From assembly GCF_056712565.1 (NCBI RefSeq), contig NZ_CM160072.1: a stretch of 64,000 bases of DNA. The stretch is one strand, 5' to 3'. Of this stretch, positions 2,409-34,790 are shown piece after piece (the stretch's first letter is position 1; every line of letters starts with the position of its first letter). Below the pieces are notes generated by a model. The model ran no database searches, was not told where the DNA came from, and saw only the letters and a program-made list of their open reading frames with translations. Made by a program: the position numbers and the translations under genes.

Positions 2409-4319
2409 TTACCTGGAGGATGGTATCGCAAGGAAACGAACCGCACGGGCAATGTCACGGGTGCGCGGCGCTGGCGGCAGACTGGCGAGAAACGTCGCGC
2501 CGTAAGGGCGCATCACCAGCCGATTGTCGCAAATCACTAACACGCCGCGATCGTCGGCGTCGCGAATCAATCGCCCTACCCCCTGCTTGAGAGTAATGAC
2601 CGCATCCGGCAGTTGTACTTCATCGAACGGATCACCACCGCGCAAACGGCAATCTTCCATGCGTGCTTTTAATAGTGGATCATCCGGCGAGGTAAACGGC
2701 AATTTGTCGATAATCACCAATGACAATGTATCGCCACGCACGTCCACCCCTTCCCAGAAACTGCTGGTTGCCACAAGAAGCGCGTTACCGGCGCTGACAA
2801 ATTGCTGCAACAGTTGCCCTTTGCTGGTTTCCCCCTGCAACAAAACGGGAAGCGTCATGGTAGCGCGGAACTGCTCGGCCAGATCGCGCATCATGGCGTG
2901 CGAGGTACAAAGCATAAAACAACGACCGTTGTTAGCTTCGATGATCGGTCGCAGCATTGCCGCCAGTTGCCGTGCGGAACCCGGTTGATTAGTTTGCGGC
3001 AGGTTGCGCGGCACACAGAGTAACGCCTGGCGGCTGTAATCAAAGGGGCTGGGTAACAGCAACGACTCTGCCAGTTCAATGCCAAGCCGCGAGGTGAAAT
3101 GATGCAGATCGTCGTTCACCGACAGCGTTGCTGAGGTAAAGATCCAGCTACCGGGTTTTTGCGCCATTAACTCTTTGAATTTATCCGCCACGCTGAGCGG
3201 CGTGAGAGCCAGAGTAAAATGGCGCGAAGTGCATTCGTACCAGTAGCTGTAGCCCGGCTGATTGATCTCTTTTAGCCGTTTCAGCCGTGTGCGATATAAC
3301 GTGGCGCGTTCAAATGCCGCATCCAGCAAGGCGGAACGCCCCAGCGACAGTTTCGCCACGTCATAACAAAGTTCCAGAGTGTCATCGAGCAGTAAAAATG
3401 CCCGCTGAATTTGCGGATTAGCTAACAGCTCACGCAGGTTACCGCGATAACCTGGCTCACCGAGTTGCAGGCGAAAATCCTGCGCACTCTGGGCAAGACG
3501 GTCAGCGCACTTTTGTAACTGCTGGGTGTCTTTTAATTCGGTGCGGTAGGCGATGGTGATGTCTTTTGCCAGGTCGAGCAGTTGTCGACTGGAGAGTGAC
3601 TGACCAAAATACTGGCTGGCAATGTCGGGCAGCTGGTGGGCTTCGTCGAAGATCATGACGTCAGCTTCCGGGATCAGTTCGCCAAATCCACTCTCTTTCA
3701 CCACCATATCCGCCAGAAAGAGATGATGGTTTACCACCACCACATCGGCGTCCATCGCTTTTTTGCGTGCTTTGACTACAAAGCAATCTTTATACATCGG
3801 GCAGTCGCTGCCAAGGCAGTTATCGTTGGTGCTGGTGACCAGCGGCCACGCCTGTGAATCTTCCGCCACGCTGACGCAGGTGCTGATATCACCATCGACT
3901 GTTTGATTAGACCAGGAGCGCAGCAGGATCACATCGCTTAATATTTGTACCGGCAGATCGCCGCCCGCTAGCGCCTGTTGTTCGAGACGTTCGAGGCAGA
4001 GGTAGTTTGAGCGCCCTTTCAGCAACGCCACGTTGCCCGTATATTTCAACGCCTTTGAAACCGTTGGCAAATCGCGGCTGTAGAGCTGATCCTGCAACGC
4101 TTTTGAACCGGTCGAGATAATGACTTTCTTTTTCGCCCGCAGCGCAGGGGCCAGGTAAGCGTAGGTTTTGCCCGTACCGGTTCCGGCTTCCACCACCAGC
4201 GGCTGGCCTTTTTCTATCGCCTGGGTGACGGCTACCGCCATCTGTCGCTGTGGTTCTCGCGGCTTAAAGCCTGGTATCGCTTTCGCCAACTGACCGTCTG
4301 GTGCAAAATCGTCCGTCAC
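2409..4319 (-). CDS. yoaA: DinG-family ATP-dependent DNA helicase YoaA
   Basis: 636-aa ORF; Walker A AGTGTGKT, DEAH box (IFDEAHQL), Fe-S cysteine cluster region. Confidence 0.9.
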   Translation of the reverse strand: MTDDFAPDGQLAKAIPGFKPREPQRQMAVAVTQAIEKGQPLVVEAGTGTGKTYAYLAPALRAKKKVIISTGSKALQDQLYSRDLPTVSKALKYTGNVALLKGRSNYLCLERLEQQALAGGDLPVQILSDVILLRSWSNQTVDGDISTCVSVAEDSQAWPLVTSTNDNCLGSDCPMYKDCFVVKARKKAMDADVVVVNHHLFLADMVVKESGFGELIPEADVMIFDEAHQLPDIASQYFGQSLSSRQLLDLAKDITIAYRTELKDTQQLQKCADRLAQSAQDFRLQLGEPGYRGNLRELLANPQIQRAFLLLDDTLELCYDVAKLSLGRSALLDAAFERATLYRTRLKRLKEINQPGYSYWYECTSRHFTLALTPLSVADKFKELMAQKPGSWIFTSATLSVNDDLHHFTSRLGIELAESLLLPSPFDYSRQALLCVPRNLPQTNQPGSARQLAAMLRPIIEANNGRCFMLCTSHAMMRDLAEQFRATMTLPVLLQGETSKGQLLQQFVSAGNALLVATSSFWEGVDVRGDTLSLVIIDKLPFTSPDDPLLKARMEDCRLRGGDPFDEVQLPDAVITLKQGVGRLIRDADDRGVLVICDNRLVMRPYGATFLASLPPAPRTRDIARAVRFLAIPSSR

Positions 4320-18144: not shown

Positions 18145-18235
18145 GACAACTCCGGCAGGATACTAAAGGCCGCAAGTGTAACGCGAATCATGCGGCGGGC
18201 AAATATCCGAACGACTGGAGCGAAGATAAAACAAA

Positions 18236-18262
18236 GTAAAAAGCCTCGCATTCGACGAGGCT
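18236..18262 (-). terminator. Rho-independent terminator after cspC
   Basis: On minus strand GCCTCGTCGAATGCGAGGC hairpin followed by TTTTT. Confidence 0.65.
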
Positions 18263-18309
18263 TTATAGCGAGATTGAAGCGTATTCACACTTCAGATCAG
18301 TGGATTCGA

Positions 18310-18519
18310 TCAGATAGCTGTTACGTTAACAGCTGCCGGACCTTTCTGACCGTCCTGAATTTCGAACTCAACGTTCTGACCTTCAGCCAGAGTTTTGAAA
18401 CCATTACCCTGGATAGCGGAGAAGTGTACGAACACATCTTTGCTGCCATCAGCCGGAGTAATGAAGCCAAAACCTTTAGACTCGTTGAACCACTTAACCT
18501 GACCTTTAATCTTTGCCAT
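18310..18519 (-). CDS. cspC: Cold-shock-family protein CspC
   Basis: 69-aa [40 protein letters not shown]... (RNP1/RNP2 motifs). Confidence 0.95.
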
Positions 18520-18531
18520 TTGAAAAATTCC

Positions 18532-18675
18532 TTAGATTGTTTTCTTCGCCCGCAGGCATAACATAGATAAAACTGACACATTACTGCATGAGGCACCAAT
18601 ATAAGGCTCGGCAGAGAAGCGGTATTCAACGTCAACGTGTTTACTCAGGACTTCTTTACTGAAAATGCCACACAT
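18532..18675 (-). CDS. yobF: Small protein YobF (47 aa), co-oriented immediately upstream of cspC
   Basis: Hand translation [47 protein letters not shown]; GAGGT Shine-Dalgarno upstream. Confidence 0.8.
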
Positions 18676-19345
18676 AAACAGAACTGTACCTCGTTTAACC
18701 CGAAATCTGTTATCACATACAACGTTAATTATGGCAAGCCATTTTTAAACATGTCTCGATCAGACGCACAAATCTCGATACGTCTTCCACTTTTTTGCAC
18801 ACTTATGCAACGGAATACGCGCCGATATATCATTGTGCTTAACCTTGCCAGTTCAGGCAGATACTTAAACTGGCGTATTTTTTCTAACATAGTTCAATAA
18901 GTTCAGTTGTTCCAGGCCAGTGAGAGAAGTTATTACATAGTGCGTGCAATATCACATTTTTTGCTATGCAATGAATAAAAAGTTATATCACTTTTTCTCA
19001 TAAAACAGTCAGTTAACGGCTATCAATTACCCTAAAGAGAAGTCAATCCCCAAAGGGATTGTAAATTTAAAATAAGAAAAATTGATGAATGAGCAAAAAA
19101 ATCAAGAGAGAAACGTTTCGCTAATAAATAATACCACGCTTAATCACAAATCCGATGTAAACATCCTAATAAATTAATGAGGGAAATATCTTTTTCTGAT
19201 ATCCCGTTACGCAAATTAATAATATGATAATTATTTGAAGTCAGACCAGAGTTTTAATTTGAAGCAGCTGCACCATGACAGTGCGTATAATCAGCATGAA
19301 TTGAGTAACCCTTCAACGACGGGGTTACTCAAGATTGAGGAAGGA

Positions 19346-33397: not shown

Positions 33398-34057
33398 TTA
33401 TTGCAATTGCACAAGAGTCAGTTCTCCCCCAAAGACAGCACCGGTATCAATATAATGCAGGTTGCCAATATCCACGCGATGGCGCAAAGGTGTATGACCA
33501 AACCAGAAATGATCAGCACCTGCAATTCCCTGCCCTTTTTGGCGTTCACCTAATCGCGAGCGGCTCCACAAGACCTGATGCAAATCGACGTCCTTTTGCC
33601 ATTCATAGACATCATCTGGATAATCGGCATGAGCAATAACATGTTTGCCGGTGCGACTGTGTAATTCAAGAATAAAGGGCAAATGCTGACATTTTTCCAG
33701 CGCCGTTTTCGCTTGTTTCTGGTGATTATCTGCCAGCGCAATAAACCAGTCGCCGCCATTTATCAACCATAAAGACATCTGCCGGGATGCCAGCGCATCC
33801 ATCGCCATCTGTTCATGATTGCCTCTTACCGCACGAACCCAATGTTGTTCCAGTAACTGCAGGCAACGTAAACTTTGCGGCCCACGATCGATAACGTCTC
33901 CCACTGAGATAAGTAAATCTCGCCACGGATCAAAACGACAATGCCATAATTTGCGGCGCAACTGCTCAAGACAACCGTGTATATCGCCTGAAAGCCAGAT
34001 ATGTCGCCATTGATGACCCGCAATTCTCTGATAAACGGGCGCAGGCTGTTTCATCAA
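33398..34057 (-). CDS. pphA: Ser/Thr protein phosphatase 1 (PPP family)
   Basis: 219-aa ORF MMKQPAPVYQRIAGHQWRHIWLSGDIHGC...; metallophosphatase motifs GDIHG, GDVIDRG, GNHE. Confidence 0.85.
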   Translation of the reverse strand: MMKQPAPVYQRIAGHQWRHIWLSGDIHGCLEQLRRKLWHCRFDPWRDLLISVGDVIDRGPQSLRCLQLLEQHWVRAVRGNHEQMAMDALASRQMSLWLINGGDWFIALADNHQKQAKTALEKCQHLPFILELHSRTGKHVIAHADYPDDVYEWQKDVDLHQVLWSRSRLGERQKGQGIAGADHFWFGHTPLRHRVDIGNLHYIDTGAVFGGELTLVQLQ

Positions 34058-34188
34058 TATTTTCCTCCCGCGCTAAAGATCACATAATCTTAACAAGAAT
34101 GTTAAAAAACGCTGGACTCAGACAGTAGAGTGTGTGTTATGGTTGACTATAAAGTCAGCGAAGGGAATGCTTCTGGCTTTTAACAGAT

Positions 34189-34291
34189 AAAAAGAGACCG
34201 AACACGATTCCTGTATTCGGTCCAGGGAAATGGCTCTTGGGAGAGAGCCGTGCGCTAAAAGTTGGCATTAATGCAGGCTTAGTTGCCTTGC
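34189..34291 (-). ncRNA. sdsR: SdsR (RyeB) sigma-S-dependent Hfq-binding sRNA
   Basis: Minus strand reads GCAAGGCAACUAAGCCUGCAUUAAUGCCAACUUUUAGCGCACGGCUCUCUCCCAAGAGCCAUUUCCCUGGACCGAAUACAGGAAUCGUGUUCGGUCUCUUUUU; sigma-S-like -10 (TCTATTCTT) just upstream. Confidence 0.8.
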
Positions 34292-34377
34292 TCTTTAAGA
34301 ATAGATGACGACGCCAGGTTTTCCAGTTTGCGTGCAAAATGGTCAATAAAAAGCGTGGTGGTCATCAGCTTAAATGT

Positions 34378-34419
34378 TAAAAACCGCCCGTTCTGGTGAA
34401 AGAACTGAGGCGGTTTTTT
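34378..34419. terminator. Bidirectional terminator (ryeA on plus strand, yebY on minus strand)
   Basis: AAAACCGCC...GGCGGTTTTTT with inner GTTC/GAAC stem; A- and T-tracts on both sides. Confidence 0.55.
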
Positions 34420-34448
34420 ATTGGAAATCAAAAGGCTATTTTAGGTAA

Positions 34449-34790
34449 TTAACAGAGTTTTTCAGCTCGCTCTATAAACGGTGCCAGACTCATTTTTTCG
34501 CCGGGATTGTTAGGATCATCAATCTGAATCACCGAAATGGGTTGGGCTTTAGTCTTCCCACTGGCAACTTCCTTTTGTGCGATATCGTTTAAAGGATACT
34601 GCACGAGGGTACTTGGGTTAATGACATACAAAGCATTACCCGGTCGGCAAGTCAACATCACCTCTTCGCGATTAAACGCCCATTTGTCTTTACCCACTTC
34701 AAAACGGCTGACGGTAATCACCTGCGGTGCCGCCAGCGCAGCTGCAGAACTGGTGAGTAACAGAAACGCCAGAATACTTTTTCTCATCAT
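34449..34790 (-). CDS. yebY: Secreted DUF2511 protein YebY
   Basis: 113-aa [26 protein letters not shown]... with signal peptide. Confidence 0.75.

Follow-up and report, generated by a model that had tools for sequence, protein, structure and literature searches.

The pphA-yebY intergenic region

The window analyzed here is a 64,000-nucleotide stretch of Escherichia coli DNA in which the genes pphA and yebY are separated by a gap of ~391 bp (34058-34448, or from 34055 if counted from the pphA ATG). Two overlapping small RNA genes occupy this gap. On the minus strand lies sdsR (ryeB; 34190-34291), encoding an Hfq-type sRNA of ~102 nt, and on the plus strand lies ryeA (sraC; 34151-34419), encoding an antisense sRNA of ~269 nt that encloses the whole of sdsR. 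Both flanking genes were defined from open reading frames and annotation. The phosphoprotein phosphatase 1 gene pphA (33398-34054, minus strand) begins 135 nt past the end of SdsR, and yebY (34449-34790, minus strand), the conserved upstream neighbor of sdsR, is found on the same strand as sdsR, which starts at 34291. The pphA start is placed at a TTG at 34057 in the open reading frame list (219 aa) and at the ATG at 34054 in the curated annotation (218 aa), with a GGAGG ahead. A sense-antisense pair had originally been predicted at 34100-34430, an interval that encloses every described element of the pair. The locus was examined with respect to sequence identity, promoter and terminator elements, RNA structures, and conservation pattern.

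A match to the gap was found in 5425 of 5426 complete E. coli genomes, and the sequence is 100% identical to that of Nissle 1917, ATCC 11775, and other strains, including many of B2 type. Pairwise alignment with K-12 MG1655 across the whole gap revealed three substitutions (34165, 34292, and 34371) and a T-run at 34414-34419 that is shorter by one T. MG1655 places ryeA and sdsR between the same two genes, pphA and yebY, with ryeA (1923066-1923337, plus strand) aligning to window positions 34151-34421 and sdsR (1923104-1923207, minus strand) to 34189-34292. The locus is almost certainly E. coli sdsR/ryeA (ryeB/sraC) in its ordinary, uninterrupted form, and its SdsR and RyeA features are far beyond chance. 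The differences from K-12, together with the interruption of the locus by a prophage or insertion sequence in ~4% of E. coli genomes, might be taken to indicate a decayed or inactive copy or a chance resemblance, but the probability of this is negligible. The window copy is uninterrupted, the substitutions and the single indel spare mature SdsR, both -10 elements, and both terminator stems, the identical allele is carried by the many B2-type strains noted above, and the Rfam E-values for the two RNAs are 1e-21 and 1e-40.

The original observation that an open reading frame track leaves this gap unexplained extends to public annotation, as RefSeq/PGAP also lacks any feature there in non-K-12 genomes. 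Nissle 1917 (L122, 2498-2891) and every other non-K-12 genome listed have no RefSeq/PGAP feature under the gap, and ryeA and sdsR are named only in the curated MG1655 record. An annotation limited to open reading frames therefore misses a core regulatory locus in non-K-12 E. coli, and it is mainly for annotation that the locus matters. That the gap instead encodes one or more small proteins is highly improbable. The six-frame list does contain open reading frames of 63 aa (34346-34155, minus strand), 50 aa (34431-34279, minus strand), and 38 aa (34283-34399, plus strand), but none of the three had a Pfam match at E<=0.1 and none is annotated in the heavily curated MG1655 record. Furthermore, the 63-aa and 50-aa frames start upstream of the sdsR transcription start, inside promoter and terminator DNA, and the sequence outside sdsR is only ~39% conserved, with indels that break the frames between species. 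The three frames, neither conserved nor matched in Pfam, were rejected as coding sequences.

Elsewhere in the window, the Rfam cspA-thermoregulator model matched 18235-18695 (minus strand) with 135.6 bits (cut-off 78). The collinear region of Nissle 1917 carries yobF and a cold-shock-family gene with the PGAP label cspE (cspC in K-12). This is a match to a paralogue, including coding sequence, and not to cspA itself.

SdsR and its promoter

The Rfam model SdsR_RyeB (RF00111) matched 34288-34189 on the minus strand over its full length (model positions 1-100 of 100) with 114.4 bits and E=1.8e-21, far over the gathering cut-off of 38 bits. The minus strand had been predicted to carry an exact-looking SdsR, and from +1 (34291) to the 3' end the sequence is indeed identical to that of MG1655 sdsR. 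Mapping in K-12 placed the sdsR start a single base downstream of the annotated 5' end (Choi et al. 2019, PMC6610125); this start corresponds to G34291 in the window, and the RNA begins GCAAGGCAAC. Primer extension and RACE in K-12 gave SdsR 3' ends at +100 to +102 and internal 5' ends at +31 to +34 (PMC6610125). The 3' ends correspond to window positions 34192-34190, and a processed form of ~70 nt would begin near 34261-34258. The minimum free energy fold of SdsR consists of three hairpins, the same as those of Rfam (-34.8 kcal/mol, z=-4.67). These hairpins were recovered with RNAalifold from 81 distinct SdsR homologues, with three pairs of the terminator stem showing compensatory changes of both bases.

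The predicted intrinsic terminator of SdsR was found by both terminator scan and folding. It spans 34189-34223 on the minus strand and consists of an 11-bp stem (34223-34195) followed by a U-run (-15.8 kcal/mol, z=-4.14). In K-12 this terminator is leaky, and transcription runs on into pphA (PMC6610125).

The sdsR promoter (34298-34325, minus strand) was identified from direct reading of the sequence and from K-12 mutagenesis. The minus strand upstream of the gene reads GTCATCTATTCTTAAAGA, followed directly by the initiating G. The -10 element is TATTCT at 34303-34298 (-12 to -7), preceded by C(-13) at 34304, and is separated by a 16-bp spacer from a -35-like TGGAAA at 34325-34320. The segment TCTATTCTTAA has C at -13, T at -14, and C at -8 together with an A/T discriminator (TAA), consistent with a sigma-S promoter; these are the features that Froehlich et al. 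2012 (PMC3333887) give for sigma-S selectivity. The K-12 primer PM_SdsRR swaps TATTCT for CTCGAG and abolishes SdsR (PMC6610125), and the -10 in the window is exactly the hexamer inactivated in that experiment. The sigma-S-type -10 predicted upstream of SdsR is thus the same element that mutation validated in K-12. Of 114 distinct sequences, at least 95% keep the CTA of the -10 and the CTGGAAAACC block, and variation at C(-13)TA and in the -35 block is almost absent. A generic promoter scan of the gap found neither the sdsR nor the ryeA promoter, since both deviate from the sigma-70 consensus; both were identified by direct reading together with published mutagenic primers.

RyeA and its promoter

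MG1655 ryeA maps to 34151-34419 on the plus strand, with the ends as defined in K-12. Primary starts fall at 34149-34151 and the end lies within the T-run 34414-34419, and the RNA holds the full complement of SdsR. Perfect SdsR:RyeA complementarity at 34190-34291 follows by construction from the gene overlap, and the same segment is the putative RNase III substrate and zone of convergent transcription on both strands. RyeA folds with -91.8 kcal/mol (z=-4.33).

The ryeA promoter (34113-34143, plus strand) is of the sigma-70 type and, together with the start region, is identical to that of K-12. Its -10, TATGGT (34138-34143), is of the extended type because a TG precedes it at 34135-34136, giving TGtTATGGT at 34135-34143. 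Farther upstream, at 34113-34118, is a conserved TGGACT block immediately preceded by an A-tract. In K-12, the ryeA -10 is known from the primers RyeA-p3 and PM_RyeAF to be TATGGT, set within TGTGTGT-TATGGT-TGACTATAAAG (PMC6610125). Replacing TATGGT with CTCGAG abolished RyeA, and transcription was by E-sigma-70 only (PMC6610125). Three transcription start sites were mapped for K-12 RyeA, the most downstream being the annotated 5' end (34151 in the window), and 3' RACE placed the 3' ends at +261 to +270 (PMC6610125). The in vitro transcript of ~270 nt was made only by the sigma-70 holoenzyme, which together with the 3' ends indicates Rho-independent termination of RyeA (PMC6610125).

A 15-nt direct repeat brackets the ryeA unit, with one copy just upstream of the promoter (AATGTTAAAAAACGC, 34098-34112) and the other at the start of the ryeA terminator (AATGTTAAAAACCGC, 34373-34387); the copies are identical at 14 of 15 positions. 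This is probably a chance similarity between two contexts of A-tract plus CGC, with a rough expectation of 0.01-0.05.

The Rfam model SraC_RyeA (RF00101) matched the plus strand at 34185-34329 over its full length with 176 bits and E=1.6e-40. Both Rfam models that the original prediction named as a check therefore matched far above their gathering cut-offs (37 bits for SraC_RyeA), with the RyeA match being non-discriminating. The span of RF00101 is the reverse complement of sdsR and the sdsR promoter and includes neither the promoter, the 5' end, nor the terminator of RyeA, so a match is not independent evidence for RyeA. Full-length matches (121-175 bits) were obtained in 20 of 20 diverse sdsR loci, including those of Yersinia pestis, Serratia, Dickeya, Lonsdalea, and Sodalis. 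Examples are L115 3089-3235 and L108 611-758, and genera in which RyeA is reported to be absent are among those matched; sraC was found in only about half of such species (PMC3333887). The match says that sdsR is present, not that RyeA is made, and annotation pipelines should not count it as evidence of RyeA production. In the window, RyeA production is instead suggested by identity to K-12 at the experimentally defined promoter, start sites, and terminator. The same identity, with the full overlap of sdsR, bears out the prediction that the opposite strand encodes an overlapping RyeA.

A terminator predicted to be shared with yebY

A putative bidirectional intrinsic terminator (AAAAACCGCC...GGCGGTTTTTT; 34379-34419, both strands) lies between the convergent ryeA and yebY. 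The hairpin (34379-34418) has perfect 10-nt outer arms, as identified with a repeat finder, and the T-run behind it is 6 nt long on the plus strand and 5 nt long on the minus strand. It folds with -20.0 kcal/mol (z=-4.2) on the plus strand and -19.8 kcal/mol (z=-6.2) on the minus strand, and 0 of 200 shuffles were as stable. A generic terminator scan missed this hairpin because the loop exceeds the limit of the scan; it was recovered by folding and the repeat finder. In 12 aligned Enterobacteriaceae the AAAAACCGC...GCGGTTTTTT architecture is kept and the inner stem is variable.

RyeA had been predicted to end at a bidirectional terminator shared with yebY, and for the RyeA end the K-12 data agree. 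The hairpin is matched in K-12, where termination was seen in vitro and the RyeA 3' ends at +261 to +270 fall on the last stem base and the T-run. In the opposite direction, the hairpin starts 30 nt past the yebY stop codon, and the equal folding of both strands and the TTTTT tract lend good structural support to a terminator shared with yebY. Termination in the yebY direction is predicted from this fold; a literature search for yebY 3'-end mapping found none. The hairpin also stands between yebY and the sdsR promoter.

Conservation across Enterobacterales

An exact-pattern scan for the conserved SdsR core in species-representative genomes yielded 120 loci, spanning Escherichia to Yersinia, Serratia, Dickeya, Rahnella, Hafnia, and Sodalis. 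Mean identity to the window over 109 distinct loci, in which the SdsR +35 to +63 core is conserved by construction of the search, was 0.79 for the sdsR promoter, 0.87 for SdsR +1 to +34, and 0.94 for SdsR +64 to +102. The corresponding values were 0.45 for the ryeA promoter and 0.35 and 0.39 for the RyeA-only 5' and 3' parts. Judged by these alignments, the conserved parts among the 109 loci are sdsR and its promoter only, and not the RyeA-specific parts. Poor conservation of the latter is the reason for which SdsR is regarded as the primary product in published work (PMC3333887), and the pattern obtained here reproduces independently the published view that the conserved gene is sdsR, not sraC (PMC3333887). 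With respect to gene order, 86 of 94 loci have a yebY homologue in the same orientation no more than 400 nt upstream, and pphA lies directly downstream of sdsR in only 7 loci of the same synteny check.

Two promoter arrangements were found on the ryeA side. The K-12-type block (CTGGAC, 19 nt, TATGGT) is found again in Citrobacter, Enterobacter, Kosakonia, and others, and a different element, of the GGTATAA/GATATAA type and located farther upstream, is present in E. albertii, Salmonella, K. oxytoca, and others. The upstream element matches the SraC published for Salmonella and Shigella, which is ~35 nt longer (PMC3333887). By crude regular expressions and heuristics, which make these promoter-type counts (as well as the terminator counts across loci) approximate, the K-12-type TGnTATGGT occurs at the equivalent place in 30 of 109 loci, with CTGGAC conserved in those shown, a GGTATAA-type element in 18, and neither type in 61.

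These data bear on the question of whether sdsR is the sole selected gene at this locus, with RyeA being lineage-restricted and mattering, if at all, through the act of its transcription (interference, insulation) rather than as a partner sRNA or antitoxin. This appears rather unlikely, although several observations favor it. Conservation falls sharply at both edges of sdsR and its promoter, and either type of ryeA promoter is confined to the minority of loci counted above. Froehlich et al. agree, and found only a ~1.5-fold change in SdsR without the sraC promoter (PMC3333887). Furthermore, pphA is repressed by ryeA transcription and not by RyeA RNA (Choi et al., PMC6610125). On the other hand, the K-12-type promoter block is kept with or without pphA downstream (pphA is adjacent in only 6 of 27), suggesting selection within the Enterobacteriaceae. 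Both the mutual degradation of the two RNAs and the rescue by RyeA from SdsR toxicity are also published. The identity of the locus as sdsR/ryeA would be the same under either interpretation.

In Atlantibacter hermannii (L111), Rfam rydB matched 4216-4280 on the plus strand (61.7 bits, cut-off 50), ~270 nt past sdsR and in the same orientation. In E. coli K-12, rydB occupies an unrelated position.

Insertions at the sdsR locus

The gap is split in ~237 of 5425 E. coli genomes. In E. coli STEC 2015C-4498 (NZ_CP027552.1; L123, 4547-6000), a lambdoid prophage carrying integrase, excisionase, RalR, and RecT adjoins the sdsR 3' end, with the junction at window position 34188. The prophage replaces the ryeA promoter side and contributes a slightly diverged SdsR terminator arm of its own. 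The sdsR 3' end is a phage attachment hot spot reported in Salmonella, and the split gaps and this prophage fit such a role. A different type of interruption was found in E. coli FDAARGOS_944 (NZ_CP065613.1; L124, 6226-6990), where an IS1A lies inside sdsR ~10 nt from the 5' end, with the junction near window position 34282; judging from its position, this insertion should inactivate SdsR and split RyeA.

In six loci with the Salmonella-type RyeA flank (L004, L060, L058, L081, L100, and L101), a degenerate second SdsR terminator arm (AAAAGACCGAATAC...) lies within 160 nt beyond the SdsR 3' end. It resembles the junction of the STEC prophage and has the appearance of a scar left by an earlier integration. 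The window was searched for a repeat of the SdsR 3' end, i.e. an att-like mark of old integration, and none was found.

The ryeA promoter lies on the variable, integration-prone side of the locus, and the antisense partner may therefore have been repeatedly gained, lost, or replaced through promoter capture from incoming DNA. This is put forward tentatively and is somewhat improbable; if true, it would account for why two unrelated types of ryeA promoter exist and why many lineages have neither. Strains with a prophage at the site would then be natural ryeA-promoter knock-outs with earlier or higher expression of SdsR and pphA. Repeated promoter capture would add nothing for the window, which has the unoccupied K-12-type arrangement.

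Expression and function of the pair

The sdsR/ryeA locus has been known since 2001 and is thoroughly characterized. The pair in the window is one already known; its recognition is correct but ordinary, and current understanding is unchanged. Expression, sigma-factor dependence, targets, degradation, and toxicity in the strain of the window would be expected to follow the K-12 and Salmonella literature by analogy.

In stationary phase, the sigma-S (RpoS) promoter on the minus strand would produce the ~102-nt SdsR. Transcription would stop at the leaky intrinsic terminator, with read-through entering pphA; in K-12, pphA is transcribed mainly through such read-through from the sdsR promoter (PMC6610125). 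SdsR would then act in trans as an Hfq-associated repressor. In E. coli, tolC and yhcB are reported targets, and mutS is a disputed one that promoter mutants failed to confirm; in Salmonella, the reported targets are ompD, crp, stpA, and tolC. SdsR would connect RpoS with the composition of the outer membrane, with drug efflux (tolC), and possibly with mutagenesis.

In exponential phase, the sigma-70 extended -10 promoter on the plus strand would give rise to the ~270-nt RyeA, running antisense across all of sdsR and its promoter and stopping at the hairpin after yebY, which is encoded on the other strand. SdsR and RyeA would pair perfectly over ~102 nt and be co-degraded, and convergent ryeA transcription would lower the transcription of sdsR and pphA. 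Both mutual degradation and transcriptional interference have been described for SdsR and RyeA in K-12 (PMC6610125). RNase III products of SdsR:RyeA have been seen, and the locus was the top stationary-phase cluster of RNase III double-stranded RNA captured by p19, i.e. an in vivo duplex. Under the joint effect of co-degradation and transcriptional interference, RyeA would be limited to the growth phase and SdsR to stationary phase.

Over-expression of SdsR is reported to be lethal by way of yhcB, with RyeA restoring survival (PMC8610362). On account of this toxicity and rescue, sdsR-ryeA is given as the founding module of type VIII among toxin-antitoxin systems (PMC8610362), a label that rests on over-expression experiments.

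Comparison with known systems

Compared with K-12 sdsR (b4433) and RF00111, the window has the same mature RNA, the same TATTCT -10 with C(-13), the same terminator, and the same site downstream of yebY and upstream of pphA. The one difference is a single base at -1 (34292), where the transcribed strand has A in the window and G in K-12. Similarly, the window shares with K-12 ryeA (b4432) and RF00101 the extended -10 TGtTATGGT, the start region, the full overlap of sdsR, and the terminator hairpin, and differs by substitutions at RyeA +15, +142, and +221 and by a terminator tail of 6 T instead of the 7 T of K-12. The RyeA of the Salmonella/Shigella/E. albertii type has a different, more upstream -10 and is ~35 nt longer, whereas the window is of the K-12 type.

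As in other bidirectional intrinsic terminators, the element between ryeA and yebY is a GC-rich hairpin bordered by an A-tract and, at its opposite edge, a T-tract, folds equally on both strands, and is located between convergent genes; it differs in that the experimental 3'-end support is in the RyeA direction only and comes from K-12. With respect to type VIII (RNA toxin/RNA antitoxin) systems, the sdsR-ryeA locus is the same one that defines the class (PMC8610362), with the comparison for the window made at the level of sequence only. Nothing structural differs from the defining locus, and the antitoxin RNA encoded by ryeA is fully complementary to the toxin RNA encoded by sdsR, as is characteristic of this type.
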